Origin: Phormidesmis sp.
Lineage (GTDB): Bacteria > Cyanobacteriota > Cyanobacteriia > Leptolyngbyales > Leptolyngbyaceae
Assembly: GCA_965248535.1 (NCBI GenBank)
Contig: CBDFJR010000005.1
Location: 864,001 to 928,000, forward strand
Length of the DNA: 64,000 nucleotides
Direction of reading: 5' to 3'
Each line of letters begins with the position of its first letter. Position 1 is the stretch's first letter. Shown one piece after another: positions 22,486-41,212 of the stretch. Both the position numbers and the translations under genes were made by a program. Below the pieces are notes generated by a model. That model had not been told where the DNA came from, did no database searches, and saw nothing but the letters and a program-made list of their open reading frames with translations.

Positions 22486-23172
22486 CTATATTTTGAGAAT
22501 GTAAACGATCGCGAAACAAAAGGGAATCAACTCTCCTCTTTGATTTTTGCTTTTGAAAAGTCGCACCATTTCGTCTTCTGTTAGGTCTTCAATCATGAGA
22601 ATGGCGGTGTCGATCGCAGCTTTTCGGAGGTTTTCGAGTTTTTTATTTTTAGTGCCGAGATTGAGTATTGCAATGGTTGCTGAAGCATCTCCCGAGTGGT
22701 CAAAATCCTCTTTTGCCCAGATTGCTCCACTAGAAGCGTCATATCTGAAGAATGCCTCACAGTCAAACTGTAGGGGTGAGATTGGAAGTGGGCGATCGCC
22801 TCGTTTAATTCCGCAGCGATCTGAACAAGAAAGTAGATTCTCAAATCTTTCTTCTGCCCATTCTTTCTGATATTTTTCTTTGCGCCACTGTTCAGAAATA
22901 CCACAAGAAGCTAGAAGATATTGGTAGTTGATTGTCTCTGATGGATCGGTGAAAGAACTCTGAGACGGAAGATGTTCGATATGGCTATTTTCTAACCTGA
23001 CCTCTACTCCGCAATAGCAGCAAATGTAACCTTGATCAGCCAACAGCGCGTTATGTAAATCTGTTCTCTCTGAACCTCTTAAGTCACTATAACTAGCTGA
23101 CCAGTTTTCGTCGCCTAATGCTTTCCATGCTGTAAGGCTAGACGGTTCTTGACCCTTTTGAATATACTTCAT
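22486..23172 (-). CDS. HNH endonuclease, TIGR02646/PtuB-like
   Basis: MKYIQKGQEP, DQGYICCYC, HIEH, YLLASC, CG.KRG; overlaps the ATPase stop by 4 nt. Confidence 0.8.
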   Translation of the reverse strand: MKYIQKGQEPSSLTAWKALGDENWSASYSDLRGSERTDLHNALLADQGYICCYCGVEVRLENSHIEHLPSQSSFTDPSETINYQYLLASCGISEQWRKEKYQKEWAEERFENLLSCSDRCGIKRGDRPLPISPLQFDCEAFFRYDASSGAIWAKEDFDHSGDASATIAILNLGTKNKKLENLRKAAIDTAILMIEDLTEDEMVRLFKSKNQRGELIPFCFAIVYILKI

Positions 23173-24491
23173 CGACCAATGACTTCATGACGACGGATTA
23201 AAATTTCAGCTTTGACAAATTCTGATTCATCATCGCCGATTTTCTCTGCCATTTCTTTTTTGAGTGCTCTTGCTGCTTCAAGATCGCCGTCTTCAATCAA
23301 TCGAAAAAGTTTTCTTAGCTGTTCTTTAATTTCGATCGATCGACTATCTGCTTCCATTTCATCTTCCAGAATTTCGGCGCTATCTCTTCCGTAGGTTTGT
23401 AGAGATTCAGCAATGATTCCATCAGAAGTTGACTTGAGCCGATAAACTTTACCTTTGACTTCTCCTAAAACTTGAGGCGAATGAGTGGTAACGATAAATT
23501 GACAGTTTGGAAAGGTTCGGGTGAGGGCAGGAACGATATCACGCTGCCACTTTGGATGAAGATGTAACTCGATTTCATCAATCAGGACAACGCCTTCGCC
23601 TTGAAGAGGATCAGGTAGACCGGGGTTAGCGATCGCCAGTCTTCGCGCCAAATCTCCCACCATCGCTAATAGACATTTCTCACCGTCTGAAAGCTGATTG
23701 ATAATCAGTTCTTGACCCTGTTTTTGAACGGTCATGCGGAGGGGCGATCGCCGCACTCGCAGATTTGAAAACCCAGGAAGAAACTCAGTAATTGCTTTTC
23801 GGATCGCTTCTAACTTACGATCAAGATAGACAAAATCATCTCGTCTTTCTTCATTTTCTAGATCTTCTAAAACCCTGAACCATTTAAAGAACTGCTGAAA
23901 TGTAACCTCTTTCTCTCCTAAAGCTTGATTGTAGGCACGTAGCTGGAAGATGGAGTTAAAGCGGTCTAAATCTGCTTGAAAGAAGAATTCATCTGAAGGT
24001 TCCAAATCAACGTTAAGAGTTGTTCTATTCACAGAATAGTGAACCACTAAAGGTATGTTACCTTCCGGACTGTCTTGCCATTTAGTTATTAACTCTTTAG
24101 TAGTTCGTTTCAAACCTTCATCATAAATGTATTCAGCTTGAACGTGCATCATTTTTCTAATTGACCAACTTATATTTTCAGAGTTGAAGTCAATAAGAAT
24201 ATTTAAATCTGCTTGACCTCGGTTATTGTTAATGTCTTGATCGCTTAATGAAGAGTAAAGAGGAGATTGTTGTTTTCTTGCATTAAATATACGAGAGATA
24301 GAATCAGAATCGTCATAGTTATCTCCTAGAACTAGCGAAGCAAAGAGGGAAAATAAAATACCAAGGCAATCCAGGAGCGTAGATTTACCAGCGCCATTGT
24401 TGCCGATCAGCACAGTGATATTTGAATCGAAATCTAGCGTCAGATTATCGATGCCCCGAAATGATTGCACTATCAGACGTTTAACTTTCAT
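23169..24491 (-). CDS. ABC-type/AAA ATPase, PtuA-like
   Basis: GNNGAGKST, QLSDGEK, VLIDEIELHLHPKWQ, QFIVTTHSPQV. Confidence 0.85.
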   Translation of the reverse strand: MKVKRLIVQSFRGIDNLTLDFDSNITVLIGNNGAGKSTLLDCLGILFSLFASLVLGDNYDDSDSISRIFNARKQQSPLYSSLSDQDINNNRGQADLNILIDFNSENISWSIRKMMHVQAEYIYDEGLKRTTKELITKWQDSPEGNIPLVVHYSVNRTTLNVDLEPSDEFFFQADLDRFNSIFQLRAYNQALGEKEVTFQQFFKWFRVLEDLENEERRDDFVYLDRKLEAIRKAITEFLPGFSNLRVRRSPLRMTVQKQGQELIINQLSDGEKCLLAMVGDLARRLAIANPGLPDPLQGEGVVLIDEIELHLHPKWQRDIVPALTRTFPNCQFIVTTHSPQVLGEVKGKVYRLKSTSDGIIAESLQTYGRDSAEILEDEMEADSRSIEIKEQLRKLFRLIEDGDLEAARALKKEMAEKIGDDESEFVKAEILIRRHEVIGR

Positions 24492-25336: not shown

Positions 25337-25605
25337 AGTCAGCCTCCAGTTTAGGGTTAAGAAAGTCGCGCCGATTTGTATCTGATCAACGCTTCTAGAG
25401 CAATCTCAGTATGGTTGCAAAAATCATACTCTATCGTTAAAAAGCCCATTGCGTATCTAGCGTGGGAGCGAATTTCAAAATTTACACGTTTTTTAAGGAA
25501 GCGGTTATCGGGCGGCGTTTTAGCGCTCTCGATCAGGTTAATAAGTCCGATTCTAACTACTATAGAGTTCAAACTGCTCACACTCCACCCAACCTGCTCA
25601 ACTGT

Positions 25606-26250
25606 ATGTGGCAATCGCTGATTTCTTATACCTTGGGGACATTAATCGCCCTGTTTCCGATCGCGAACCCGATCGGGGCCGTGCCGATTTTTTATAGCTT
25701 TACGGCCGATGACACGCCCCGCTATCGCCTCAAACAAGCTCGTAAAACAGCATTCAATGTGGTTGGAGTGCTGGTGACATTTTTGCTGGTAGGCAAACTG
25801 GTGCTCGGCTTTTTTGGAATTTCGCTAGGCGTGCTGCGAATTGCGGGTGGGCTGATTGTCGGGCACACCGCTTGGGAAATGGTCACAGCACGGCGGCGGC
25901 TGACAACTGACGAACACCAAGCAGCCGTTGATCAAGAAGATATCTCGTTTACGCCGATGGCGGTGCCGATGATTGGCGGGCCGGGCGCGATCGGGGTCGT
26001 GATCGGTCAAGCAACTCAGGCAACCGCCTGGATCGATTATCTAGGCTGTGTGCTGGGAATTGGGTTGCTAGGTGGATTGATCTACCTGTTTCTGAGATTG
26101 GGTGAACCTTTGATTGAGAAGATGGGGAAGACAGGCATGGGAGCGCTGAATCGAATTTTGGGCTTTTTGATTTTGGCGATCGCCGTTCAACTCGTCGCCA
26201 ATGGTCTATTGGAATTGATCAAAACAGCCGCGCCTCATTTGTTGAGATAA
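25606..26250 (+). CDS. MarC-family membrane protein
   Basis: IANPIGAVP, FFGIS....RIAGG, PMAVPMIGGPGAI, RILGFLILAIAVQ; start at ATG 25606. Confidence 0.88.
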   Translation: MWQSLISYTLGTLIALFPIANPIGAVPIFYSFTADDTPRYRLKQARKTAFNVVGVLVTFLLVGKLVLGFFGISLGVLRIAGGLIVGHTAWEMVTARRRLTTDEHQAAVDQEDISFTPMAVPMIGGPGAIGVVIGQATQATAWIDYLGCVLGIGLLGGLIYLFLRLGEPLIEKMGKTGMGALNRILGFLILAIAVQLVANGLLELIKTAAPHLLR

Positions 26251-26989
26251 CGTTAGAAGGTGCAACCTTTGACACCAACCGCAGCAAATTGTTGCCGAGC
26301 ACTAAACTCTCTTCGGCAGGAGATAACCCCAACAAACGAATCTTGTGGAGTTCAAGCGCCGGATGTAACCACGGGCCATCGGTGCCGAACAATACCTTAT
26401 GTGCGCCGCCTCTGCGGACTGCTTTGAGCAAATAATCAAACCGACGCACCCCAGAGCTATCGGTATAAACATTAGGCAGCCGGGCAATTTGATCAACGAC
26501 TCGAATGTGGGCTGACCAGTCATCTGCAAAGCTGCCCAAGTGGGGAACAATAAAGTTCACATCGGGATACTGAGGAGCCAGCAGATCAATGATTTCAGGT
26601 TTGCCAACCGGATCGTAGAGGACGGGTAGCCGGAACCTTTGAGCGACCTCGCAAACTTCGCGAGTGACTGGTGCATCGAGTCGATGGGCTTTGATGCCGC
26701 AAAACTTCCATTCAGTCACAGCTTGTTGAACGATCGCATGAATATGTCCCCGATCGCGCTGGGCATGAACAAATGCAAATCCCCAAAATCGCCCTGGATA
26801 CCTGGCAACAATGCGAGCAGTGTTAGCATTTGCTTCTGCATAGTTGCTGTGAAATGGAGAAAAGATCACCGTTTTGTGAATGCCTGCGTCCTGTGCTCGT
26901 TTCAGATAGGTCTCGATCGGGGCATCTGTGTTCCACGGCCCCGTTAACAAGTCGCCTTTTCCGGCATGACAATGACAATCGATAATCAT
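26219..26989 (-). CDS. Amidohydrolase_2-family metallohydrolase
   Basis: IIDCHCH, GIKAH, PHLG, VLFGTDGP, LGNN. Confidence 0.85.
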   Translation of the reverse strand: MIIDCHCHAGKGDLLTGPWNTDAPIETYLKRAQDAGIHKTVIFSPFHSNYAEANANTARIVARYPGRFWGFAFVHAQRDRGHIHAIVQQAVTEWKFCGIKAHRLDAPVTREVCEVAQRFRLPVLYDPVGKPEIIDLLAPQYPDVNFIVPHLGSFADDWSAHIRVVDQIARLPNVYTDSSGVRRFDYLLKAVRRGGAHKVLFGTDGPWLHPALELHKIRLLGLSPAEESLVLGNNLLRLVSKVAPSNVISTNEARLF

Positions 26990-28380
26990 GATCCATACTC
27001 CGCAAAGAATCGAATCACGGTTTCAATACCCCGGAAGACGTTAGATAAACTAATTTTCTCGTTGGGTGCGTGGATATCGTCATCGGGCAAGCCAAACCCT
27101 AGCAGCACGATCGGGACGCGCAACCGCCGATAGAGTTGTTCGACCAGAGGAATCGATCCGCCGCTCCGGGTGAACACGGGTAGAACACCCCAAGTTTGTT
27201 CAACAGCGCGAACCGCCGCCCGCATTACAGGACTGTCTTTAGGCAACAAAACTGGACGCGATCCGCTGGTTATTTTCAGCCGACTGTGAATGGCAGGATG
27301 ACTCAAAGTGTTCAGATAACGTTCCAACAGTTGAGCAATTTCTGTGGGTTCTTGATCAGGAACCAATCGCAAACTAAATCGAGCCATTCCTCGACTCGGA
27401 ATCACCGATTTTGCACCCGCTCCTGTGTAGCCGCCTGTCAGTCCGTTAATAGTCAGTGCGGGGCGAATTGTCATCCGCTCAACTAGGTTATAGCCAGGTT
27501 CACCCCAGCCCATCGGCACGTCAAGGTCAGCCAAGATTTGTTGGTTGCGTTTGCAGGCGCAGCGTAGTTGTTGCCGTTCTGTTGGGTGGAGATTTCTGAC
27601 TCGGTGATAAAAGCCAGGAATCGCCACTTTTCCGGTACGATCGTGCAATCCCGCTACCATTTCGCTCAACGCTTGTAATGGATTCAACACAGCGCCGCCA
27701 TAACGCCCCGAATGCAGATCATGTTTGGGGCCGCGCACTTCTAGCTCACCGTTGAGATTGCCCCGTAACCCATAGACAATCGAAGGTCTGCCGCGCCCTA
27801 GCATCTCGGTGTCTGAGACTAAGACAGCATTGGCTTGCAGTCGGTTGGCTTCGCGATCGAGAAACGCCGACAGATTGGGACTGCTAATTTCTTCTTCCCC
27901 TTCTAACCAAATTTTGAGATTTAACGGCAATCGTCCGGTGGTTCTCAAATAGCTTTCGATCGCTTTTAGGTGAACAAAGAACTGTCCTTTGTCGTCGCTG
28001 GCTCCTCTTGCAAATAAGTTGTCTCCAACAATAGTGGCTTTAAAAGGTGGAGTGCGCCATTCCTTTATAGGATCAACAGGCTGTACATCATAATGTCCAT
28101 ACAGCAATAACGTTGGCTTTGCCTCTGCCATTAACCAATCTGCATAGACACTGGGTGCGCCACCATTTACGCCAGCAATCACTTGCACATGATGTAATCC
28201 GATCTCCGATAGGTGTCGCGCTAACCAATGAGCACAGGCTTTAATATCTTTTCGGTGTTGCGGCAGAGCCGAAATAGTAGGAAAAGCGATCAGGTCAGAC
28301 AACTGGGAGAGCCAGCGCGATCGCTGCTCTGATTGCTGACTATAGCGGATCGGGTTGACCGTAATCGGTGAAGTCATCAT
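26986..28380 (-). CDS. M20-family dipeptidase/deacylase
   Basis: YGHYDVQP, RGASDDKG, EGEEE, DLHSG, HAPNE. Confidence 0.9.
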   Translation of the reverse strand: MMTSPITVNPIRYSQQSEQRSRWLSQLSDLIAFPTISALPQHRKDIKACAHWLARHLSEIGLHHVQVIAGVNGGAPSVYADWLMAEAKPTLLLYGHYDVQPVDPIKEWRTPPFKATIVGDNLFARGASDDKGQFFVHLKAIESYLRTTGRLPLNLKIWLEGEEEISSPNLSAFLDREANRLQANAVLVSDTEMLGRGRPSIVYGLRGNLNGELEVRGPKHDLHSGRYGGAVLNPLQALSEMVAGLHDRTGKVAIPGFYHRVRNLHPTERQQLRCACKRNQQILADLDVPMGWGEPGYNLVERMTIRPALTINGLTGGYTGAGAKSVIPSRGMARFSLRLVPDQEPTEIAQLLERYLNTLSHPAIHSRLKITSGSRPVLLPKDSPVMRAAVRAVEQTWGVLPVFTRSGGSIPLVEQLYRRLRVPIVLLGFGLPDDDIHAPNEKISLSNVFRGIETVIRFFAEYGS

Positions 28381-28381
28381 C

Positions 28382-29527
28382 TCAGGTCAGCAAACTTAAG
28401 GGAACAATGGTATCGCCTACCATCCAATAATCGGCAGCACCAGAAGATTTGAGTTCCACCATTGCAGCGTGAACACAGTTGGTTCCACGCGGAGTGTCAT
28501 CTGGGAATTTTTTATAGCCAAAGCCAACCGGATGCCATTCATATCGATCCATAAACCATAAATGCACCTGTCCCGATGCCCGATCGACTTCAAAATCAAG
28601 ACGGTCGATCGCGCCAAACGCAAATTCAAAATCTTTGACTGCATAATCGCCCCGGCTACCCTGGTGAAGCTTCGTAAACCCCGTGCGATGTTTTTTGATC
28701 AATGCTTTTAACTTGCTGCGAACCTTTGCATCTCGGCGAATCACCGCTTCTAGATCCACGGTCAGCGTCTTTCCGCCCCCTGTTAGATAATGGTCGAAAT
28801 GCTTTTTTGCCAGAGGCAGACCTGCGAGGACAGTTGCACCCGCAATTTGAGCAACTCGTGCAGGTTCAAAGAGCGCACAAGCACACTGCGAAGCGACTGC
28901 GGGCGGAAGACTGGTAATCTTTTTAGGATCTAAAAGCATCTGTTTGGCAGTGTCGCCACACTTTTTCCGGGAGTCTCGCTGAACTTCACTCCAGCGGCCC
29001 GTCGGCAAGTGATTGTGGTTCACTCCAGGAGTAAATTTTGTAACAAATGTTGTACCAGGTGGGCGCGTTTTGGGAGCTACTGGAGCAGGCTTTTTTCCAG
29101 AACGGCGGCGGTCAGCCAGAAAATTTGCAGCATCGCGAACCTGACCCGTAGCCTGTAGATCTCCCACGGGTTTGGGTAACACTCCCGTCATCACAACCGT
29201 CTTGGCATAATTGAGCCGAAGCCAATTGACCATTCCTGCATAGGAAGCAGCACGGCTCCATAGCTCGTTTAACTTAGCTGACCCTAAACTATCTAAGGCC
29301 CGCAGCAGTTCAGCCATGTTCAGCCCATTCAGGTTAAGAAAGGCACCTCTCCAATCTCCTGCGCTAACTGCATTCTCGAAGGCTCGGCGAACAGAACTAG
29401 GAACCGATTCATACTCCAGTTCAAAGGCTGCCTCATCTTCTGTTTGCCACTGAGAATAGGCATTGTTAGAACCAGATTGCTCTGAAATGAGCGGTGCCTC
29501 AAACAACCACTGACCTGTTTTGTTCAT
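28382..29527 (-). CDS. Hypothetical protein with WLFEAP/acidic leader
   Basis: 381-aa ORF with AGGAG RBS; N-terminus MNKTGQWLFEAP...NNAY...EDEAAFELEYE; body not recognised. Confidence 0.8.
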   Translation of the reverse strand: MNKTGQWLFEAPLISEQSGSNNAYSQWQTEDEAAFELEYESVPSSVRRAFENAVSAGDWRGAFLNLNGLNMAELLRALDSLGSAKLNELWSRAASYAGMVNWLRLNYAKTVVMTGVLPKPVGDLQATGQVRDAANFLADRRRSGKKPAPVAPKTRPPGTTFVTKFTPGVNHNHLPTGRWSEVQRDSRKKCGDTAKQMLLDPKKITSLPPAVASQCACALFEPARVAQIAGATVLAGLPLAKKHFDHYLTGGGKTLTVDLEAVIRRDAKVRSKLKALIKKHRTGFTKLHQGSRGDYAVKDFEFAFGAIDRLDFEVDRASGQVHLWFMDRYEWHPVGFGYKKFPDDTPRGTNCVHAAMVELKSSGAADYWMVGDTIVPLSLLT

Positions 29528-29580
29528 GATTTAACTCCTGATTGCTTTGGGTAACTCCAAAAGAATCGCAATGTTGTCCC

Positions 29581-30567
29581 TTAGCGATTCTGCAAAAATG
29601 AAGCAGCCCTGATGCGCGGCTGCCAATATCGAATCGGAACTTCGTTGTGAGACCCCGTTGCCGATCGGGTCACAAATACGTTGAGAAGCTTTTGGCGTTT
29701 TGCTTTGGCTTGCAGACTAACCGCCTGAGCTTTGGTGCTGCACGACGGTCTTTTGGGAGGCGGACAATCGATATTGATGTAATAAATGTAGAGGTTACTG
29801 GAGGGGTTTGTGGCGGCCCACCTTGCCCATCCGCTATCGTCGCCGCCATTGTAGGTGCAGTCAAATCCCCAACACTCCCGAATATTAGCGGCATACTTTT
29901 CCTTTGATAAAGCAATCTGCCGCATCGGTAGCCCACCGCCTGAATGACAGGCCAGAATAATCTTACCCACCCTCGGCGTTTGTCGCCCTTGGTGGGGCCC
30001 ATAAGCGCTGAGAGATGCGAGTATCTGATCGAGGTAAGCATCGAACCCGCCCGGTTGAACAAGCGTTCCGGCTTGCGATCGCGACCCCAAGGTCGGCGCA
30101 ACTAAAATGACATTTTTCCCACTGGCATTCAATTCTTCCCGCAGCCCAAAGAAGGGGTAAGCGGTGCGATTCCAGTACTGATTAATCGTCAAGTTAGAGG
30201 GGAAATAGCCCCGACCTGGCGCTTTTCCTCGAATCACGTTGTCTCTGTGATGACCCTGTAGATAGAGAATTAAATCCACGCTGTCGGTCGCTGAATAATT
30301 CTCAGGAATAAAAATTCCCGTCATGGGTCTGGGGCAGACGGGCGGAGCCTTCGGGCTGCTGGTCGTACAGCCGAGGTTGATGTCAACATAGAGGGTCGAG
30401 TTGAGCGGCGTTGATTCGGTGCTGATCAGGGTGGGAAGGGCGGGCAAGAGTGGGGGAGCTTCAAACAGCCATTCCTGTTCAGCCTCAAGGGTTCCATAAG
30501 GGTTGCTGTTGTGAATCGCTTCTGACGAGAACGGTGCCTCAAATAGCCAGGGGTGAAGAGTCTTCAT
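29581..30567 (-). CDS. Alpha/beta-hydrolase-like protein with doubled WLFEAP leader
   Basis: ILYLQGH, ILACHSGGG nucleophile elbow, GFD, late His (SHNEVP); WLFEAP occurs twice in the first 38 aa. Confidence 0.7.
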   Translation of the reverse strand: MKTLHPWLFEAPFSSEAIHNSNPYGTLEAEQEWLFEAPPLLPALPTLISTESTPLNSTLYVDINLGCTTSSPKAPPVCPRPMTGIFIPENYSATDSVDLILYLQGHHRDNVIRGKAPGRGYFPSNLTINQYWNRTAYPFFGLREELNASGKNVILVAPTLGSRSQAGTLVQPGGFDAYLDQILASLSAYGPHQGRQTPRVGKIILACHSGGGLPMRQIALSKEKYAANIRECWGFDCTYNGGDDSGWARWAATNPSSNLYIYYINIDCPPPKRPSCSTKAQAVSLQAKAKRQKLLNVFVTRSATGSHNEVPIRYWQPRIRAASFLQNR

Positions 30568-30576
30568 AGTTTTGCG

Positions 30577-31737
30577 CTAGGTCGGTGGATTATATTCCCA
30601 GTGCCAAGGTTCACGATCGTAGGGATAAAACCCAAAGGAGGCGGCATTTTGCACCAGCCATTGATAGGCAGAGGTTGCCCGCATCTTCTTCACGTTTTTA
30701 GAGCTAATGCCAAACCCTAGCCAGAGATCGATCGCTCGACCCGTCTGGTGCACACTTTTGCCGGGAGGTGCCACCCACTTGCGGGCTTCCGCTTCAGAGC
30801 CATAGCGCTTCAGCGCCGCGTCCCAAAGTTGCTTCTGATGGGCGACGCTGCGAAACCCTGAGACCAGTTCTAGAGTCGGGGCCGCTAATCCAGCGCTACG
30901 GGCTGCCTCCACTAGCAAAAGATAGGACTGAGCCGCCTGATCCAGCAGCAGAACTTTTTTGCCTCTGTAGCCCCGGACTTTGACGAGTCTCGATTCAGGA
31001 GGAATGGTAATCACCTTGACTCGACCACCGCCCGTTTCAGTCGTTTCTCTATTGCTGGAGTCGGATTGCTCAGACAACACCCCAACTTGGCGCAAATGGC
31101 GATCGATTTGGCGGCGATTTGCAACGGGCACTCGCTCCCACGCGGCTAAAAATTGATGCTGCCGCCCATCTTTGAGATAGCGAAGATAGCCAGTAGGGGT
31201 GATATGCCAGAGCCGGATGCCGCGGGCAGCATCCAGTTCTGTGCCGCCTGCCGCCCGCACTTCTGCAAAGAGTTCTGCATATTTTTGAATGGGGCGGGCA
31301 ATTTCTTCATGGGGAGTGCTGTCCCAAGGAGAGGCGGTTGAGGCCACCCCGCGCAGCGATCGCCAAGCTGCCCGATTAAACTGAAAGACTCCCCAAGCGC
31401 TGATAAACGGCTTTCCCTGCCGTTGGGCACTCGGTAAAGCATTGAAGATATTTGCCGGACGACCGAACATTGCCCCACTTTCAGTCTGGGCTAGATGTTT
31501 AACCGTCGTGACAAAGATTTCGCCTTGACCGTGCGATCGGGCCAGTCGATCAATAGGGAGTAATGCCGCATTGCTGCGACTGGTCAGCCGAGCATTGTTG
31601 GGTAATCCTGGCGGACGGCGTGATTTCCATTTCGGCCCATACTCTTTTCCAGGAACAACGGGATATGGACTGTTGTTTTTTTCAACAGGGGGCGAGACAA
31701 CGGGTGCTTCAAAGAGCCACTGGCTTTGCGTCTTCAT
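30577..31737 (-). CDS. WLFEAP leader + lysozyme/transglycosylase-like domain + M15B (VanY-like) peptidase
   Basis: C-terminal SGFRS..HQ..LW, APPGKSVHQTGRAIDL, EPWHWEY (M15B); N-terminal half has AQTES and WGVFQF, resembling transglycosylase ES/GLMQ motifs. Confidence 0.8.
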   Translation of the reverse strand: MKTQSQWLFEAPVVSPPVEKNNSPYPVVPGKEYGPKWKSRRPPGLPNNARLTSRSNAALLPIDRLARSHGQGEIFVTTVKHLAQTESGAMFGRPANIFNALPSAQRQGKPFISAWGVFQFNRAAWRSLRGVASTASPWDSTPHEEIARPIQKYAELFAEVRAAGGTELDAARGIRLWHITPTGYLRYLKDGRQHQFLAAWERVPVANRRQIDRHLRQVGVLSEQSDSSNRETTETGGGRVKVITIPPESRLVKVRGYRGKKVLLLDQAAQSYLLLVEAARSAGLAAPTLELVSGFRSVAHQKQLWDAALKRYGSEAEARKWVAPPGKSVHQTGRAIDLWLGFGISSKNVKKMRATSAYQWLVQNAASFGFYPYDREPWHWEYNPPT

Positions 31738-31799
31738 CGTTCAAACTCTCTCGTTGAAAGGGTGAGCCGTTTGCATTAAGCGGTGGATCAATCATTTAG

Positions 31800-32957
31800 T
31801 TACCCCACAACTCGCGGTGCAGGCATTAAGCCATTCGATCGGGCAAACACGGGATCTCGTCGAGCACCACTGGGCGGCGGGCCGGGCTGATAGACGTTCC
31901 GGGGTGGCGGAGTTGGGCGGCTGATCCGCATTCCTTCTTCACTAGAGAGCCATTCTTCAGAATATTCAGCAATGCGGTAGAGTAACGCCTCAAAATCTGT
32001 GCGGTTTTTCTTGAGCACAAACGGCTCGGCTAGCCAGCGAATAATCTCTCGTCCAGCTACGGCCATGCGGTTCATGGTGCTGGCGTGAACCGATTGACCA
32101 AAATATTGCCACAGCACGAGTTCAATCATTTCCCAGGCGTTGGCTGCCCCAAACTGAGCGCGCACATCGGGAGCTTCTAGAACCTTAAAGGCTTCGGCGA
32201 GAGATTGGCTAGTTTCGACTCGCAAGACGTTGATATAGCCATAGGAAGAGTTCTTTAAATTGTTGCGTAAATCTAACCCGGCTCGACGCACGATCGCCAT
32301 AGAGCCAAAGGTCGGATCAGTCGCATTTTGCCGAATCACTTCACTGATCCGTTTGTCGCGCCAAAACTTAGCGGTTTCCCCAATAAAGTGAGAAAAAAGC
32401 CCATGAAACTCAGGATTGAGCCGAGCACCCGGGCCCGGATCGCGCCCATAGCCCAAGACGCGGGCATAGGCTCGACGACGATCGCGCTGGTGGTAGCGCA
32501 AAATATTGTGCCGATCGAAGCGATAGAGTCCATAAGCGCCTTCGCCGTTAGAAATCCGCAGGGTTCCGGCTCGAAATAGCTCTTGCAGCTTGTGCATCAC
32601 TTTAAACACCCCCAACAGTTCATGAATAGCGAGGTAGTAAAGGTCGGCTGTAGCCAGGATACGATCGCTGGTCACGGTGTCGTCATAATCAGCCACCCCG
32701 GCCGAGACTTGGGTTTGTCCCAGATCAACAGGGGCATTGCTTCCCAAGCCAATCAGATCGGCGAGTCCGCCATCGGTCGGGGTTCCCTTGCCGTTTTGGG
32801 CGGCATCAAATTTGTTCACCTGGTCATCGACCATGCGGTTGAGAACTTCGGCCAGTTGGGGGTTGGCGACGAGTTCCGGGCCTAGGGCCTCAATGGTGTT
32901 TTGCAATAGTGCGGCAACGCGATCGTTGCGCTGATCATAATCTCGTGTGTTAGGCAT
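31800..32957 (-). CDS. Hypothetical protein (385 aa)
   Basis: Long ORF co-oriented within the operon; no family recognised; Pro-rich C-tail. Confidence 0.8.
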   Translation of the reverse strand: MPNTRDYDQRNDRVAALLQNTIEALGPELVANPQLAEVLNRMVDDQVNKFDAAQNGKGTPTDGGLADLIGLGSNAPVDLGQTQVSAGVADYDDTVTSDRILATADLYYLAIHELLGVFKVMHKLQELFRAGTLRISNGEGAYGLYRFDRHNILRYHQRDRRRAYARVLGYGRDPGPGARLNPEFHGLFSHFIGETAKFWRDKRISEVIRQNATDPTFGSMAIVRRAGLDLRNNLKNSSYGYINVLRVETSQSLAEAFKVLEAPDVRAQFGAANAWEMIELVLWQYFGQSVHASTMNRMAVAGREIIRWLAEPFVLKKNRTDFEALLYRIAEYSEEWLSSEEGMRISRPTPPPRNVYQPGPPPSGARRDPVFARSNGLMPAPRVVG

Positions 32958-33008
32958 AGCTCAATTTCTATCCTTCTAAAATCTCGATCGGTCAGAGGCT
33001 GTCAGTAG

Positions 33009-34418
33009 TTACTTAAAAGAATTAGAGAGTCCGGGGGATAGATCCGCCAGCACCTTGAGTTGGGAGAGTAACTCCCTGAGCGTTTGGTTGACCCGCTCAT
33101 AAGACAAGAGTTGCTTCAGTAATGGATTCCGCTCAAGTTGACTTCCTTCCCTCACATCGGCAGGGATACCAAACTGGATATAGTCCAAAATTAGACCAAT
33201 GACCCAAAACAGCGTGTCGGCTTGATCTGCAACAAACTCCAGCCCATATCGACCTGACGTTGCGAGGATATCAGGAGCCTCGATACTACTGAAGCGATCT
33301 ATCCAGTCAGTGAGGTCATTGACTGTGATTCTGGGCAGCACAAATTGAAGAGATAAGTCTTGACCCAAACCCAAGAACAGAGACTGATCTGGGAAATCCG
33401 ATAGGGTTGAAAATCGAGCCGACTCAGTTCGCCGTTCAGATTCGCTGAACCCGATCGAATCCATTGCTGCCATAAAGCTGGCATTGCTATCGGCAATCAC
33501 AGGCAACAAGACACTGGAACGAGAGAGCTTATCGCTGTAACTCCCTGACTCTTGCTCAGACACACTTGCTCCGAGATATTTCGTCCAAAAGCCGTTTAGC
33601 GTATCTACATAATTCTGAATCAACTCAAAAGCGGCAACTTGAGCTTCATCCTTGGTTGTCACGAGATTATCGACTAACCCAGTTCTAGTTAAAGAGCTTG
33701 TCCCTGGTTGCGATAGAGAAGCCAGCTTTGCTAGTTTGCCAAACTCTACAAGGTTTCTTTTTAGAGTGCTGAAGTAGATATCGACTCGACTGCGGCGGGG
33801 TTCATCCAATCGCCCAAACTCTTCAACTAGGCTCGTCATCTGGCTACGAACTAAAGCCCGTAGCGCTTCTACTGCATCTTGGTCAGCCGTTGGGTCAAAG
33901 GGAGCGATGCCTTCTAGCACTTGCAGAGCATCTGCCGTGATCAGGCTGGCTTGACGGTATAGATTTGCCTGTTCAACAGAGAGTTGCCCAATCAAGTCTG
34001 TACTATTGTTTCCATTGCCAGAGGTGGGAGCGTACATAGAAACAACGCTGCGGCTAGGCACGGTCACAATTTTGCCATCGGTTGCGCTGGGAAATGCGGT
34101 GTTTAGCGCACTCATGAATCCGTCAGAACCTCTTCCCGGTGACCGCCCTAATACTTGAGTCAAGGCGCGCTCCACCTGCCGTACTAGCAAATTTGTATTG
34201 CTTGTTGCACCCGTGCGAGCAATACCTTCCTCATAAGCAGTTGGCTCATTGTTTGCCTGTTGTCCCAAAAATTGAGCAATTTCAGCCAATTGTTGAGCCA
34301 CCTGATTGTCGGTATCTGGCAGCTTTTTTTGATAGAGCTTGTTAAGAAGGCGATTACGGAAGTCTTGAAGCTGTTGAAGTGTAAAGTCTTTTTGTTCTAG
34401 AAAAACTGGAAAAGCCAT
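33009..34418 (-). CDS. Hypothetical, largely helical protein
   Basis: Long ORF; start at ATG 34418 after a GAGG RBS; no family recognised. Confidence 0.78.
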   Translation of the reverse strand: MAFPVFLEQKDFTLQQLQDFRNRLLNKLYQKKLPDTDNQVAQQLAEIAQFLGQQANNEPTAYEEGIARTGATSNTNLLVRQVERALTQVLGRSPGRGSDGFMSALNTAFPSATDGKIVTVPSRSVVSMYAPTSGNGNNSTDLIGQLSVEQANLYRQASLITADALQVLEGIAPFDPTADQDAVEALRALVRSQMTSLVEEFGRLDEPRRSRVDIYFSTLKRNLVEFGKLAKLASLSQPGTSSLTRTGLVDNLVTTKDEAQVAAFELIQNYVDTLNGFWTKYLGASVSEQESGSYSDKLSRSSVLLPVIADSNASFMAAMDSIGFSESERRTESARFSTLSDFPDQSLFLGLGQDLSLQFVLPRITVNDLTDWIDRFSSIEAPDILATSGRYGLEFVADQADTLFWVIGLILDYIQFGIPADVREGSQLERNPLLKQLLSYERVNQTLRELLSQLKVLADLSPGLSNSFK

Positions 34419-34505
34419 TGTTATTAACCTCATCTACAGCATTAATCATTCACGAGTTGATTGGACTTATCCTACTCATTAGCCAGTCCGATCTTGGTGG
34501 TGTAC

Positions 34506-35855
34506 CTATCGCCTCCCTAAAATGCGATAGAAATTGTCGGTAATGGTTTGGGGGGTTGCAAGTTGACGGTCTAAGGCAAACCGAGCCGCACTGATCATGA
34601 ACCGAACCGGAACAGTGCCGGGATCTTGTCCGGCGGCCAGCCGTTGCCCCGCTAACTCCACCATTGCCATTTGCTTGGGCCCAAACTGCATCGCTTGAGC
34701 CAGAGATTGATTTCCAAACTGGCGGTAAGGCTGAAAAACCATTGTATCCACGACCATCTCAGCCGCCGGATAAAAGGTCTTCATAAACTCGGCAGGAATG
34801 TCGTTGGGCGTGACTTTAGGATAGAGCCGTTGCCAGACTCGCGTCAGATCCGCCGCCATTTTTTCAAACCCCATGCGGCGCAGCAAAATCAGGTTGATCA
34901 ACGTTCGCAGATAGGGAGTGGGATGCACAGACATGGCGCTAAAGCGAACGGTGCTGGACGGCGATCGCCCCACCACATCCATCAGTGATTCCACCGCAGC
35001 CGGGCCACCCAGAACCAAGGCAAACATATCAGCCATTGTTTCTTTGTGCCACAGCGCCCAGACTTGCGCCACATTGGTTGGAATGTTGCCCTCGGTGGTT
35101 AAACGCTGATAGATTCGAGCCGGAATTTCTTCCCACAAGCCTAAATCTGCCTGAAGATTGTGCGAGACTTCGTGCAAAATGCTCGACAGGGCCCACACAT
35201 TATCTAGCCGATGCTGAGGCAGCATAATCAGGGGAAAGGGATTGGGATTGCGCCGCAGCCGCATGATCGGCACCCCCCGTCGAAATGTGGCCGGACTGAA
35301 ACCACTGTTGGCATAGCTAAAGGGCAGCAAACTCGGAGTAGGTTGAGCAGTTCCTAGACCGACGTAGAGATCTTCATAGCAGTTGGCACAGATGCGATCG
35401 ACGGCCCGCAATCGTTCACCAAAGTTAGAAAGTCGCTGAATAAATAGATCGAAGTAAAAATCCCAAATGCCCTCGACATAAAGCACTCGGTTGCCGACCA
35501 CCTGCTTGCGCTCTAACAACACTTGAATGCGGCTAGAGGTTGGCTCACGGCGGGCTGCTGCTGCCGCTGCCTCGACCCAGCGCGATCGCTCAATCAACTG
35601 ACTGCGAAATTGGTCAATAAACCGATTCACCGCGTCAATATGGGCCTCACTCGGAGCCGCAACGCCTGTGCCAAACTCATCTTTGATGAATGGCCGCAGC
35701 GATTTTGCGTGACGGGTGAGATTAATCGACTGGATGTTGAGCCAGTTATCGAGCAAAAGATGTTCACCTGCGGTGGTTGCCCCTTTCATAACCTGAGCCG
35801 CAGATTTGGCATCGGCAGCAGGATGTTGCTTGGGTGGAGCAGAAGAATTTGCCAT
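34506..35855 (-). CDS. Putative zinc metallopeptidase (gluzincin-like)
   Basis: LHEVSH (HExxH) followed ~40 aa later by ETMAD (ExxAD), then HP. Confidence 0.65.
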   Translation of the reverse strand: MANSSAPPKQHPAADAKSAAQVMKGATTAGEHLLLDNWLNIQSINLTRHAKSLRPFIKDEFGTGVAAPSEAHIDAVNRFIDQFRSQLIERSRWVEAAAAAARREPTSSRIQVLLERKQVVGNRVLYVEGIWDFYFDLFIQRLSNFGERLRAVDRICANCYEDLYVGLGTAQPTPSLLPFSYANSGFSPATFRRGVPIMRLRRNPNPFPLIMLPQHRLDNVWALSSILHEVSHNLQADLGLWEEIPARIYQRLTTEGNIPTNVAQVWALWHKETMADMFALVLGGPAAVESLMDVVGRSPSSTVRFSAMSVHPTPYLRTLINLILLRRMGFEKMAADLTRVWQRLYPKVTPNDIPAEFMKTFYPAAEMVVDTMVFQPYRQFGNQSLAQAMQFGPKQMAMVELAGQRLAAGQDPGTVPVRFMISAARFALDRQLATPQTITDNFYRILGRR

Positions 35856-35905
35856 CGTCACAGCTTCCTAGTGAGGTGGGTGAAGCACAGCGGCCCTGAG
35901 AACGC

Positions 35906-37105
35906 TCAACGAAGGGCGGTAGCCCGGCTAGCACAGACGGGACACCGAGCATTAGTGGCTGCTGCTGCTCGACGGGGACTGGGCGGTGCAGTGCGCTGAC
36001 GTAGAACGGCATTTCGCACGATCGCTTGCTGCACGAGTTGCGGGTTACTCAACACTCGACGACTGGCCGATGCCATGGCTTTGACGGCCAGCGCGCCGTT
36101 GATCGGTTGACCTGCTTTAGAAGCCGCTTTGAGAGTTGCAACCGTGCGCCGTTGAATCGTGGGCACCGTTCGCAGCAGTTGCCGCCCGACGGGGCCTTGC
36201 TGGCGTAGCGTCTTCACGAGTTGACTGTTGGCTTGAGCCAAAATCGGCATCACCGGACGCAAGGCCCGCCGTCCGCCCATGATCGAAATTGTGATCGGTA
36301 AGGCTGCACCTAGCGTCGTTTCTGACTCAGCTTCGGTGGCGGCTTCTGCCGATTGCGCGGCTAGAAACTCTGTCAGGGCTGCTTCTTGAGCCGATTCAGT
36401 CTGACCCACTTCGGCTTCAGCTTCGTTGGTGCCAAAAAATTCTGCTTCCATCTGTCCGGCTTCCATTTCGCCTTCTTGCACGAGCGCGCTGGTGAGTTTG
36501 GCGGCTAGGGGTCCCGCGATCGGGCCAATGCCTGGAATCAAAGCAGCCAGTTTGCCCGCCACGATCGGAGCAAATCGCTTGGCCAAGGGAGCCGCTAGTT
36601 TGGCAACTTTGCCAATGCCTCGTTTAACCGCCCGAAACGCTTTCTTAAAGAAATATTCTCCCTCGTCTTCAGGATTGGAGTATGGATTGGAGTAGGGATT
36701 AGAGTACGAATTGCTGTAATGAGCAGCTTCGTGGCTAGTTTCCCACTCATCCTCAAACTCAGGATTGGAGTATGGATTGGAGTAATGAGCGGCTTCGTGA
36801 TTAGTCTCCCACTCATCCTCAAACTCATGGCTGGCTTGGGGATTGGAGTAATGAGCAGCTTCGTGGCTAGTTTCCCACTCATCTTCAAACTCAGGATTAG
36901 AGTAGGGATTGGAGTAATGAGCGGCTTCGTGATTAGTCTCCCACTCATCCTCAAATTCAGGATTGGCTTGGGGATTGGAGTAATGGGCAGCTTCGTGATT
37001 TGTTTCCCATTCATCCTCAAACTCAGGGTTAGAGTAGGGATTGCTGTAGTGGGCGGCTTCGTGAGAAACCGGGGCCTCAAACATTGCTTGGTGTTGCGTT
37101 GCCAT
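35906..37105 (-). CDS. Acidic-repeat protein with MFEAP leader and cationic amphipathic segment
   Basis: Start MATQHQAMFEAP at ATG 37105 after a GGAGAG RBS; tandem HEAAHYSNPYSNPEFEDEWET repeats, then FFKKAFRAVKRGIGKVAK...; C-terminal CPVC. Confidence 0.85.
   Translation of the reverse strand: MATQHQAMFEAPVSHEAAHYSNPYSNPEFEDEWETNHEAAHYSNPQANPEFEDEWETNHEAAHYSNPYSNPEFEDEWETSHEAAHYSNPQASHEFEDEWETNHEAAHYSNPYSNPEFEDEWETSHEAAHYSNSYSNPYSNPYSNPEDEGEYFFKKAFRAVKRGIGKVAKLAAPLAKRFAPIVAGKLAALIPGIGPIAGPLAAKLTSALVQEGEMEAGQMEAEFFGTNEAEAEVGQTESAQEAALTEFLAAQSAEAATEAESETTLGAALPITISIMGGRRALRPVMPILAQANSQLVKTLRQQGPVGRQLLRTVPTIQRRTVATLKAASKAGQPINGALAVKAMASASRRVLSNPQLVQQAIVRNAVLRQRTAPPSPRRAAAATNARCPVCASRATALR
36656..37063 (-). 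repeat. Coding tandem repeat: five 66-bp units plus a degenerate sixth
   Basis: Units encode HEAAHYSNP(YS/QA)(NP/SH)EFEDEWET(N/S); the sixth has an expanded YSNP tract. Confidence 0.95.
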
Positions 37106-37903
37106 TTGTAAAACTCTCCGTATGAATTTAGGGGCGCAAATTGTTGAACTACGATCGTCGAAAGGTTCCAAGAAGCGTTTGGGCAACGATCGGGGCGAGA
37201 CGCTTGGCAAAGGGTGCAGTCATGGCGACTTATCGGATGGTTTGAAGGACTTTTTGAACGGAGTCCAACTCCCACTCACGCGCCATTGTGAAATGAGTGT
37301 AATGCGACGCTTGCGGGATTTCCAGTTTGAATTTATGCCCCGGATGGGAATCAGGTCTAAAACTATGGGTTGCTCTGAACGTCTCCCGCTCATCTGAACG
37401 TTGCGGATAGGAATAGTGAATTGCTTCAACCGTTGCGCTTCCGATATTTACACCTTTTTTCTTACCATTCGCGTATCCGTTCATTCGGATATTCTTCCAA
37501 CATAGGCGATCGAACTAATAGACTGTTCGTTCTCTATATAACCACTGCTATCTCTCAGAGTGCAGTCCCTTTTTTAAGGGTCGCTTATGTTTAGTAGCGC
37601 AAACGAGTGTCGTTCAAATAAGGGACGGGCGATCGGGCAGTTCCATGATTTCATTGAAACCAGAGGCAGGCTCAAAAAGTCAGCGTTTTTAGCCCATTTT
37701 GATTCTGACCGCCACTGCAAAGTACCCGTTCGGGCGATTGTCTTTTGGTCTTATTCATTGCACAATACAGGGTTTAGTATCAACTGAGTTCAGCTATCAG
37801 CATTCACCGAACACGGGTATCGCTAGTTTCTCTGCTCGCGCCATATTGTCTTCTTTCAGTTCGCTCTCGAAGCTTTCCGCTCCAGTAGCTTAAGGAGATA
37901 CTA

Positions 37904-38326
37904 ATGGATCTTGATAATAAAAAACCAACTCCAGAAATTCAGAATTCTGTGTCGTTAGAGCAAGAAGTTTTGCTGAACTGTTTAGTTAGAAAAGTGTCTC
38001 ATGTCGCCCCTCTAAAGCGTCTTCAAACGACTGAAGAGACGGTCAACGAAGTGATCATTGAATCAGATATTGATGGCACCCATTATTATCTAGTTCGCTG
38101 CACACCAAAGTTAGCCTGCTCGGTTAGTTTAAGTCCGCGAGAGTTAGCGATCGCTCGTCTGGTTTCTCAAGGGTTTCCCAACAAGTGTGTTGGCAGTCAA
38201 CTCAACATTAGCCCCTGGACGGTTGCAACTCATCTGCGCCGCATCTTTGGTAAGCTAAACGTCAACTCAAGAACTGCGATGGTGTCAAAACTTATGGAAA
38301 TAGGAATTCTATTGCAAAAAAGTTGA
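37904..38326 (+). CDS. LuxR-family HTH regulator without a receiver domain
   Basis: LSPRELAIARLVSQGFPNK.....L.ISPWTVATHLRRIFGKLNVNSR; AAGGAG RBS; divergent from the operon. Confidence 0.88.
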   Translation: MDLDNKKPTPEIQNSVSLEQEVLLNCLVRKVSHVAPLKRLQTTEETVNEVIIESDIDGTHYYLVRCTPKLACSVSLSPRELAIARLVSQGFPNKCVGSQLNISPWTVATHLRRIFGKLNVNSRTAMVSKLMEIGILLQKS

Positions 38327-39491: not shown

Positions 39492-40469
39492 TTACGATTT
39501 TCTAATTATTTTGAGGCGAGTTGGAGCACCATTCTTAGCACCATCAAAGACAATCAGAACTTCGTAGTGGACTTCATTGCCTGACGTACTTTCCGCTAGT
39601 AGAGCAAGTCCCTCAGCCTTAGTATTCTCATACACGGGAATCTCTCCCAGAAGCTTGATTTGCCCAACCTTACCCGATGTGCGAGTACCCGGCAAACAGT
39701 CTTCACCATCCCAGAAATAAGCTTGGTATGAACCCGGCCCATCCCCCATTGGGCCAGCCAGAATCAAAAACCCCTCGCTAACTCGTGTAATATCCCGAAC
39801 GCCTCGCCCATCTAAGTTTATAAAAACTAAATCTGCTCCAGCTATTGGTTTGGAAAACTTGCACTTCAAGATCGGTACCCAGTTTTCCCGGAGCACTGGC
39901 CCACGGAAACCAATGTATAGCTGTTCATCACGAACTGCGATTCCTTCGATATCAACGCCGTTCTCCTTACTTGGAATGTGGCTGAAGCGATTTAGCAACG
40001 GATTGGTATCGATGATGGAACGTAAGTTAGTCTCCTCAAGTGCTGAGACATTGCCACCAGCATCTAACTGAAAGCGAAACAAACAATCGCGATCCGGTTC
40101 TGATTCTACTGCCCCCGCAGAGAACATAGTTTCCTGATTAGCTTGGTAAGACTTTTTTGGATCAATCTTCTTTCTTTTCCACGAGTGAGAACCTACCACA
40201 TAGACCGTATTATTCTCACGGGCGATCCCCTCGATATCTATCTCTTCTTTTGCGATATCTAGCTCGATACCACTGCCTACAGTTTGGTAGCTGCTGCCAT
40301 TAAGCTTTAGGATTTTCACCTTGTTCCCCTCATCAGCCCCAATGATCAGGAGCTTATCCATCACTTCAATGGCACTGATGTTCTCATTCTGATTCTTTTT
40401 ATTGTCGTCACCGTCATAAATGTTTCTGATGATGTTGACAGTCCCTAAAAATGAGATTGATGATGTCAT
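39492..40469 (-). CDS. DUF3616-like beta-propeller protein
   Basis: EIDIEGIA, VVGSHS.KRKK, PSKENGVDIEGIA, IGFRGPVLR, LDGRGVRD, KAEGL. Confidence 0.75.
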   Translation of the reverse strand: MTSSISFLGTVNIIRNIYDGDDNKKNQNENISAIEVMDKLLIIGADEGNKVKILKLNGSSYQTVGSGIELDIAKEEIDIEGIARENNTVYVVGSHSWKRKKIDPKKSYQANQETMFSAGAVESEPDRDCLFRFQLDAGGNVSALEETNLRSIIDTNPLLNRFSHIPSKENGVDIEGIAVRDEQLYIGFRGPVLRENWVPILKCKFSKPIAGADLVFINLDGRGVRDITRVSEGFLILAGPMGDGPGSYQAYFWDGEDCLPGTRTSGKVGQIKLLGEIPVYENTKAEGLALLAESTSGNEVHYEVLIVFDGAKNGAPTRLKIIRKS

Positions 40470-40630
40470 AATTTTTCCTGTTTTTCAAGGATTGCAGTTT
40501 TTCAAGGATTGCAGATCTTCTGTAGGTTGGGTTTACGTAGGGAAATCCAACCTACGGTGAGAAGCGATCGCCCTCAGCCCATAGCAAAGGGGCGATCGCG
40601 CTCAACAAGTGCTACAAGTTTACAGTGTGA

Positions 40631-41212
40631 TTAAACACGGAAGCGAATATATGGCTGATAGGTATTTGGCATAGAAACACACTTTTCGCGGGTGTGACCA
40701 GGATTTTTCCATGTGGGGGCCGGAACTTGCAAACATTCTGCCCGATTGTAGGTTGCTCGCCCTGCTTCAAGCGTAGTTCCTGCTATGGACAACCCAACCT
40801 GCTTACCGTTGAACGATGCACGGATAGCAGAGAGAAGTTTGTTGACTGTCAACTCCCGCCGTAGATTGGTTGCCATTTGTGGAGATTTCACGGCTGCTCC
40901 GCTAATCACTCTCTCCAGCGAACCACTTGCAAAGTTCTTAAAGTAGGCCGATGTTGCACCTCCTTTAGAAACGGCAACATCAGTAGCGATAACGGCTGCA
41001 AGTTTCATGTACTCAGCATGACTAAATTCTGTCGAGTAGACGACCGTCCAACCGTTATTAGCAAGGCTCTGTTCCACCTCTGGTCGATTGGTCTTGTGAT
41101 AAGCGGAAGCCTTGTCCGAGAAGCCTAAAGCTCCAGTCAATGAGACTCCAGTGATTAGAGATAGGGAAGCAAGTTTTGCAACAATTGATCGGGATTGAAA
41201 AATCGTTTTCAT
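40631..41212 (-). CDS. Secreted hypothetical protein
   Basis: Sec-type signal ending in ASA; Cys pair near the C-terminus. Confidence 0.65.
   Translation of the reverse strand: MKTIFQSRSIVAKLASLSLITGVSLTGALGFSDKASAYHKTNRPEVEQSLANNGWTVVYSTEFSHAEYMKLAAVIATDVAVSKGGATSAYFKNFASGSLERVISGAAVKSPQMATNLRRELTVNKLLSAIRASFNGKQVGLSIAGTTLEAGRATYNRAECLQVPAPTWKNPGHTREKCVSMPNTYQPYIRFRV

Follow-up and report, generated by a model that had tools for sequence, protein, structure and literature searches.

What might nine closely packed, co-oriented cyanobacterial genes do when most of their products belong to no known family? The question is raised by a locus of Phormidesmis sp. (assembly GCA_965248535.1) that lies in a stretch of 64,000 nucleotides of contig CBDFJR010000005.1 (positions 864,001–928,000), referred to here as the window, and coordinates below are counted from its first letter. 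A preliminary description, made from the letters alone, had proposed an operon in which a core of unfamiliar proteins and a dedicated protease handle interchangeable cargo proteins that share an N-terminal leader. We find that the locus belongs to a real, conserved, multi-phylum system, made up of four core families of unknown fold or function (designated A, H, B and C) and a locus-specific tag, which is new as far as the searches reach. The linkage of the genes, the exclusivity of the tag, the exchange of cargo, the charge and amphipathic layout of A, the motifs of H and the lack of export signals were established directly. From these we infer, with a probability of roughly 0.45, that the products would form a cytoplasmic lytic assembly that is loaded by the tag, activated by a protease, released without a transporter and aimed at other bacteria, the assembly, cleavage and killing being the conjectural part.

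The operon and its conserved core

All nine open reading frames (ORFs) lie on the minus strand in the order first described, separated by 50, 72, 51, 62, 9, 53, 1 and -4 nt, the last of these eight gaps being the ATGA overlap that had been pointed out, and the divergent LuxR-type gene was confirmed at 37904–38326 on the plus strand (PF00196, GerE E 7e-17). It encodes a LuxR/GerE-type helix-turn-helix regulator whose N-terminal domain is short and which lacks a receiver domain. Nearest to it stand the core genes for the acidic-repeat protein A (399 aa; 35906–37105, ATG at 37105), the HExxH protein H (449 aa; 34506–35855), B (474 aa; 33009–34433) and C (385 aa; 31800–32957). They are followed by the genes for cargo 1 (30577–31737), cargo 2 (29581–30567) and cargo 3 (28382–29527), and for two optional accessories, a leaderless M20 dipeptidase-family enzyme (26986–28380) and an Amidohydrolase_2 enzyme of a system-specific clade (PF04909; 26219–26989). 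While the unit does contain all nine genes, it starts further upstream than had been thought, as a broken first paralogue of A between A and the LuxR gene had been overlooked (37152–37484, minus strand; in-frame stop at 37232–37230, remainder of the gene lost). This remnant shares 54 % identity over 113 aa with the intact L035:4757 protein and is spanned by a contig of run X1 with four differences, none of them at the stop. Contigs of runs X1 and X2 cover the locus, and one weak joint that bypasses the three cargo genes, with a depth of 3 and 30 letters on its shorter side, was not counted as evidence. A scan of the locus for sigma-70 promoters and terminators gave results at or below chance, and Rfam returned no match there. 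The host genome is 99.8 % complete.

C-encoding stretches were found 293 times in GTDB genomes. The locus counts given below rest on the best 80, which lean to nearer relatives; the denominators are loci with enough flank, and the profiles used for counting were built from the same loci. On this basis B lies directly upstream of C in 72 of 72 loci, with H upstream in 65 of 65 and A in 61 of 61, and the order A-H-B-C is invariant across phyla. Comparison of gene neighbourhoods across genomes thus revealed the conserved core and variable leader-bearing cargo that had been predicted. When 401 genomes sampled evenly within the phylum were searched, C matched nine, seven with a short form and two with a long form, and H was strong in exactly the seven genomes with short-form C, with one distant and one marginal match besides.

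The 83 C proteins placed in a quick tree come from 11 NCBI groups, or about nine phyla. The nearest relatives of C from the window are cyanobacterial, and two Ktedonobacteraceae proteins are nested in the cyanobacterial set (Shimodaira–Hasegawa-like approximate likelihood ratio test support 95), from which horizontal transfer of the system is suggested. A Paraburkholderia plasmid of 2.4 Mb carries a complete set without cargo. A prophage origin was rejected, as neither 50,697 phage records nor the viral contigs searched contain a homologue of C. Cultured carriers include Scytonema hofmannii PCC 7110, identified by H, and Nostoc sp. TCL26-01, Kutzneria sp. CA-103260 and Paraburkholderia sp. PGU19, identified by C, and the core proteins are annotated as hypothetical in every record that shows a name.

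The core has additions in part of its range. Two of them are common outside the cyanobacterial clade. One is a second paralogue of A (hhalign 99.9 % to A), found in 37 of 80 loci; the other is a small helical gene (~185 aa, invariant Trp residues), for which no family or structure match was obtained and which lies between H and B in 41 of 80 (L050–L097). B, C, H and this small accessory family share no profile homology with one another. Relatives of B are often extended at the N-terminus, and in some loci an additional gene, encoding MBG or carboxypeptidase-regulatory-like domains, is inserted immediately ahead of B. A further conserved gene of ~285 aa without a Pfam family stands beside the system in the cyanobacterial loci L010, L014, L015, L018–L020, L029, L033 and L055 and is missing from the window.

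Among the more peripheral genes, a LuxR homologue is present in 35 of the 41 loci for which 8 kb or more of sequence is available on either side. The M20 gene was found in 41 of 55 loci and the amidohydrolase gene in 38, with both in 28 and one or the other in 51. The amidohydrolase, at E up to 1e-30, was detected in two of the 401 genomes, both times within the locus. A pyridoxal phosphate (PLP)-dependent decarboxylase gene (PF00282), which we take to be glutamate decarboxylase-like, adjoins 11 mostly acidobacterial loci (L065, L071, L072, L075, L078, L080, L082, L084, L089, L096 and L097).

The tag, protein A and the cargo

The leader reads M-x-x-Q-x-Q-WLFEAP and continues into acidic/aromatic repeats. 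It is indeed on all three cargo proteins but is not confined to them, as a leader hidden Markov model (HMM) finds it also on A, which had not been listed among the leader-bearing proteins. Run against the 36,812 six-frame segments of the host genome, this HMM, built without the window sequences, matched just these four proteins (E 7e-15 to 1e-5; next match E 1.2). Because A bears the leader and is an invariant part of the core, it is probably the main substrate or structural unit of the system. In loci L018–L046, an aromatic-L-F-E-x-P motif starts 26 of the 39 ORFs in the slot after C and six of 350 other ORFs, all six being further co-oriented cargo of the same operons. A second profile, which included the window sequences, matched three of the 401 genomes, comprising the host and G306, within the locus only, and one marginal match. 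When metagenomes were searched with a DNA pattern for the leader, 16 distinct loci were recovered, 13 with a system gene on the contig and the other three under 2.6 kb.

Outside the cyanobacterial clade, the tag takes the form of an (E-x)n run with L, F, Y or W. Some C proteins (7 of 72) and amidohydrolases (9 of 38) also finish in an E-Y-E-L-like sequence at the C-terminus, as opposed to 0 of 3,125 long frames of the host genome, though this pattern was chosen post hoc and the carrier loci are related, mostly from Acidobacteriota. As the tag is thus also found at the C-termini of other components, it may be a partitioning tag and not simply a cleaved export signal. An intracellular granule or condensate would account for such endings: the acidic and basic blocks of A would form a storage or stress body capturing tagged proteins, which H, the M20 enzyme and the amidohydrolase would degrade to glutamate, and the lytic enzymes would be stored passengers. 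That A is a charge-block protein, that nearly all loci have one of the two accessory enzymes, that a PLP decarboxylase adjoins some of them and that many have no cargo would all fit. Nevertheless, we consider a granule unlikely, as it leaves the conserved amphipathic cationic helix of A and the toxin-like cargo unexplained, and the C-terminal tags and the decarboxylase neighbours come mostly from the same related group.

Protein A opens with the FEAP leader and five NP-E-F-E-D-E-W-E repeats, followed by the cationic amphipathic helix (residues 152–169), a Gly-Pro hairpin, a second acidic block and a basic helical C-domain. Its net charge is about -36 over residues 1–150 and +10 over residues 151–200. 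The helix starts at an E-G-E-Y|F-F junction and has a hydrophobic moment of 0.81, a value as high being found in 1 in 20,000 random windows (background 99th percentile, 0.55). Across the family, the acidic-to-amphipathic junction was picked in 62 of 76 rows, with a median moment of 0.63 compared with that same percentile, using a heuristic that favours non-acidic segments and a few of whose picks are off target. The conserved C-terminal domain of ~150 aa is common to the two paralogues.

Tandem repeats and an acidic pro-region ahead of a helix which, presumably, resembles antimicrobial peptides bring to mind a peptide-precursor pathway without any particle, akin to those for bacteriocins or ribosomally synthesized and post-translationally modified peptides (RiPPs). 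H would then release or modify short A peptides, and B and C would act in tailoring or self-protection. HExxH proteins paired with precursor peptides are known, according to excerpts from PMC7159879. This explanation appears improbable, given that A retains the ~150-aa domain in two paralogues, that the same leader is carried by folded enzymes, and that searches of the nine proteins against Pfam and NCBIfam, the aKG-HExxH models included, revealed neither a transporter nor a radical SAM or other tailoring family. Nor does A, at 399 aa with a conserved C-domain of folded type, belong with the HExxH/FxSxx RiPP-like group.

The three cargo proteins of the window are unrelated beyond the leader. 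Cargo 1 has an unassigned middle domain, lysozyme-like by eye, and a VanY/M15 peptidoglycan peptidase domain (PF02557, E 3e-23), among whose relatives of known structure are YodJ, LdcB and VanXY (E 3e-8 to 3e-6). Cargo 2 has a doubled leader and a probable serine hydrolase, which we read as an alpha/beta-hydrolase; HSGGG, D236 and H307 are invariant in an alignment of six in-locus relatives, and neither a family nor a structure match was found. Cargo 3 consists of the leader, a small helical module and a conserved C-terminal domain, which in 13 of 16 longer homologues follows eCIS_core (DUF4157, PF13699), in predicted cargo of extracellular contractile injection systems (eCIS); the other three are peptidoglycan-binding or OmpA-type proteins.

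Across the loci, the slot after C holds 66 ORFs, some of them untagged bystanders. The suggestion that cargo acts on peptidoglycan was supported, as 22 of the 58 scanned have wall-cutting or wall-binding domains (GH25, SLT, amidase_2, CHAP, M23, M74, DUF2272, extensin-like C, OmpA and PG_binding_1). Another five have trypsin, one Het-C and one M35 domains. The number of tagged enzymes per locus ranges from zero to six, and the set varies even among close relatives. The concept of a core with variable cargo holds in that tagged A is always present, but 27 of 60 loci have no enzymatic cargo at all, and no dispersed cargo was found with the leader profile used in 16 genomes with such loci. In part, this is the outcome that the preliminary description had named as counting against its proposal.

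This predominance of wall enzymes and wall-binding domains would equally suit a programmed switch for self-lysis or wall remodelling, in which A would be an auto-inhibited membrane disruptor, switched on by H in the manner of a holin or gasdermin, and the tagged hydrolases would attack the cell's own wall as endolysins do, for death, dispersal or exit from dormancy. Such a switch would need neither transporter, ATPase, signal peptide nor evident immunity gene, and none is seen; it has a dedicated regulator at hand, and cargo-less loci would still function with A alone. We nonetheless regard it as somewhat unlikely. Up to six tagged genes in one locus are far more variety than self-lysis requires, the cargo extends to Het-C, M35, trypsin and the DUF4157-linked domain, and the large, conserved B and C would have no role in a simple holin-endolysin pair.

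The candidate protease and comparison with known systems

Which protein might process the leader? The M20 enzyme had been put forward as the dedicated leader-cutting protease, and this was rejected: it is a dipeptidase-family enzyme (NF006053, 519 bits against a cut-off of 441) and is missing from five core loci of 20 kb. Dipeptidase-family M20 enzymes are unlikely to cut a leader internally. H is the likelier processing protease. It comprises an N-terminal helical hairpin and a putative gluzincin-type zinc peptidase, with HExxH in 71, ExxAD in 68 and HPxxxxR in 71 of 72 family members. These motifs have the order seen in M48 gluzincins (HtpX, BepA), including four M48 peptidases of the host genome (hhalign E 0.008, probability only 5 %). 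Unlike M48 enzymes, H has no Pfam match, fold match or membrane span, the spacing of its motifs is shorter and it has the N-terminal coiled hairpin. Its model (predicted local distance difference test, pLDDT, 85) is almost all-helical, and its fold matches cover the hairpin only (best Z 8.7, root-mean-square deviation 3.4, 88 aligned).

The remaining core proteins are no easier to place. C is modelled as all-helical (pLDDT 81). Foldseek searches of PDB and BFVD with this model brought up nothing at E 0.001 or better, the highest Z being 5.7 over 57 residues, and 18 of the positions that are at least 85 % conserved are Arg. B has no family and no solved relative, and the ESM Atlas gave no usable match for B or C. 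PDB sequence and profile searches with A, H, B and C produced nothing significant. Families were found with Pfam and NCBIfam for only three of the nine genes (VanY in cargo 1, M20 dipeptidase and Amidohydro_2), and A, H, B, C, cargo 2 and cargo 3 have none in Pfam, NCBIfam, PHROGs or PADLOC. For the seven non-enzyme window proteins, the sole PHROGs match is the M15 stretch of cargo 1; PADLOC (2023 library) gave 0 families for 7 of 7 proteins scanned and, hence, no match to a known anti-phage defence system. These blanks agree with the preliminary description, which had recognized no known machine, but they do not prove new folds. A word-matched literature search found no description of the system, though the supplementary gene-neighbourhood files of PMC3482391 and PMC7159879, which lie outside that search, could list such loci. 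Hydropathy revealed no signal peptide or membrane span in the nine window proteins (top N-terminal value 0.79, top 19-residue mean 1.58), and family scans revealed no ATPase or transporter family among them; a Sec signal peptide, a known secretion apparatus and an S8 peptidase were likewise sought in the window with these methods and not found.

As a working analogy, the closest likeness may be the loading of eCIS cargo combined with activation by removal of an acidic propiece. eCIS, including Photorhabdus virulence cassettes (PVC), also use a non-Sec N-terminal loading signal on interchangeable cargo, as far as the published excerpts go, and share cargo domains with the present system, namely that of cargo 3 and, in other loci, Het-C and OmpA, both listed as PVC toxin domains in the part of PMC3482391 consulted. 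An adjacent immunity gene is often missing there too, according to excerpts from PMC3482391 and PMC11297309. They differ in that the tag here is acidic with a conserved motif and the system is present where no tube or sheath was found. Among the nine proteins, Pfam and NCBIfam detect no tube, sheath, baseplate or AAA ATPase family, and there is no DUF4157 in the locus.

The locus might still be a satellite whose tagged effectors are passed on to an eCIS encoded at another site of the genome. Two eCIS-like loci with sheath, tube and eCIS_core genes do exist in the host genome (C2 at ~520–545 kb and C5 at ~2.23–2.25 Mb), distant from this locus and without a leader match, the cargo 3 domain is shared with eCIS cargo, and an eCIS-type tube gene is present in 28 of 56 carrier genomes. 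However, no tube gene was found in the other 28, including five of six genomes that are at least 99 % complete, and in G017 (one contig, 100 % complete), G284 and G194 a tagged gene follows C in the absence of both tube and sheath. In addition, eCIS signals are reported, in excerpts from PMC11297309, to be slightly positive and without a conserved sequence. As a general rule, a satellite role was therefore rejected as largely refuted by the carriers lacking tube and sheath, and we hold it to be very improbable.

Polymorphic toxin systems processed by a peptidase, those with an S8 peptidase (S8-PTS) among them, resemble the locus in having a linked peptidase beside variable toxin-like domains, judging by the abstract of PMC9424270, and in combining a constant N-terminal trafficking part with variable C-terminal domains, as is found here. 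In contrast to S8-PTS, no signal peptide, BetaH domain or immunity gene is seen, the HExxH protein replaces S8, and there are an invariant helical core and an amphipathic precursor.

An S8 peptidase does, however, accompany long-form C in the four such loci examined (L016, L017, L133 and L134), and C is the sole part in common with this sister system. These loci also carry Ser/Thr-rich hairpin proteins or an F-L-G-G amphipathic protein, with an additional amidase or wall-binding gene in L133 and L134. The V-D-F-P proteins with Ser/Thr-rich hairpins, of which L133 has several paralogues, look pore-former-like by eye and are mostly annotated as hypothetical. In a third variant (L154:6276–14426, genome G162), the distant H (E 3e-25) is flanked on one side by an 833-aa acidic-leader protein with a long cationic amphipathic helix and on the other by a trypsin protein that bears the tag and an F-E-S-P-F-like motif. 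A neighbouring protein of 407 aa is possibly related to C, to which it shows a weak alignment (E 0.001, probability 19 %). In two sister systems, the combination of a protease, a masked amphipathic protein and tagged cargo thus recurs, built from different parts.

Other known systems share single features. In acidic-propiece antimicrobial precursors and bacterial gasdermins, a membrane-active part is kept in check by an inhibitory segment, and a protease encoded nearby could release it; no sequence or fold link to either was found, A has the large conserved C-domain and the tag is common to enzymes. Encapsulins and microcompartments have a short, position-flexible motif on unrelated cargo beside putative scaffold genes, as here. 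They differ in cargo, which is metabolic there and lytic here, and no window protein matched an HK97 or bacterial microcompartment (BMC) shell family, the models of C and H being almost all-helical without a fold match. Holin-endolysin and type 10-like export also combine a membrane-active protein with signal-less wall hydrolases, but have no counterpart to the common tag and the protease, and a holin with a membrane span and any occurrence in the phage or viral collections are lacking here. On the features compared, the system does not belong to eCIS, S8-PTS, holin-endolysin or FxSxx-type systems.

Several flanking genes were noted in passing. A MarC/NAAT transporter gene (25462–26250, plus strand), which is not a conserved neighbour, overlaps the convergent amidohydrolase gene by 32 nt at its 3' end. 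Beyond it are genes for an AAA_21-type ATPase (440 aa) and then a 228-aa protein with CxYC and EH motifs (22486–24491, minus strand), HNH-like by eye and without a Pfam match, which could be a defence pair of Septu, PARIS or retron type, and a HerA-like gene (HAS-barrel and DUF87; 20691–22422, minus strand) split between a 477-aa ORF and a 130-aa one that overlaps it in a different frame, which suggests a frameshift. Near the other end, 39492–41212 (minus strand) and 41733–42579 (plus strand) include a DUF3616 protein, a 193-aa protein with a signal-peptide-like start and, by eye, a two-ORF element like insertion sequence IS1.

A proposed mechanism and its implications

The lytic assembly proposed at the outset could work in four steps. 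First, going by the genes present, the operon makes A and zero to six enzymes with the same tag, all without a signal peptide or membrane span. The tag would then mask the membrane-active helix of A. It would also collect A and the enzymes that carry it on the helical proteins B and C within the cytoplasm, with the Arg-rich C as its likeliest reader. H would cut at the acidic/aromatic junction (E-G-E|F-F in A), freeing the amphipathic helix and the enzymes. Release would occur through lysis or the membrane activity of A, and the freed helix would let wall-cutting and other toxic cargo reach neighbouring bacteria. The M20 enzyme and the amidohydrolase could be optional helpers that recycle the cut peptides, or that make or destroy a small signal for the LuxR regulator.

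This reading is supported by the invariant core order and by the joint marking of the same seven of 401 genomes by H and short-form C. Confinement of the leader to the locus, conservation of the junction in A and the nearly invariant motif triad of a zinc peptidase also favour it. Wall-acting domains are carried by slot genes even though the nine window proteins have no export signals, the cargo pool overlaps that of eCIS and differs among close relatives, and two sister systems repeat the combination of protease, amphipathic precursor and tagged cargo.

A number of observations weigh against a weapon of this kind. Wall hydrolases would serve self-lysis equally well, and an attack role poorly explains the strong link to the M20 enzyme or amidohydrolase. 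The loci without enzymatic cargo leave no room for any between C and these two genes, C-terminal tags on C and the amidohydrolase are ill-suited to a cleaved N-terminal export signal, and neither fold nor profile comparison matched H significantly to a peptidase. The GIY-YIG match that points to nuclease-type cargo is weak (E 0.01). No small untagged ORF that might confer immunity lies between the window cargo genes (gaps of 9–62 nt), though B, C or the tag itself could be the source of self-protection.

More tentatively, and with less than even odds, the system might be a new class of delivery particle derived neither from phage tails nor from capsids, in which A, B and C co-assemble via acidic-aromatic tags, load tagged enzymes and are armed by their own protease; C would then be the common organizer of at least two, perhaps three, sister systems that differ in their proteases and membrane-active subunits.

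The system is widespread in environmental bacteria, those with one membrane and those with two alike, and the existence of cultured carriers makes the claims directly testable. Should the tag load cargo onto a particle or bring it across a membrane without an ATPase or channel, this would be a new route of export or antagonism with a programmable address of 12–45 residues. Even if the locus serves self-lysis or forms a granule, it would contribute four new protein families, at least one fold without a solved match, and a regulated lytic or storage pathway. It may represent a new way in which bacteria package and release lytic proteins.

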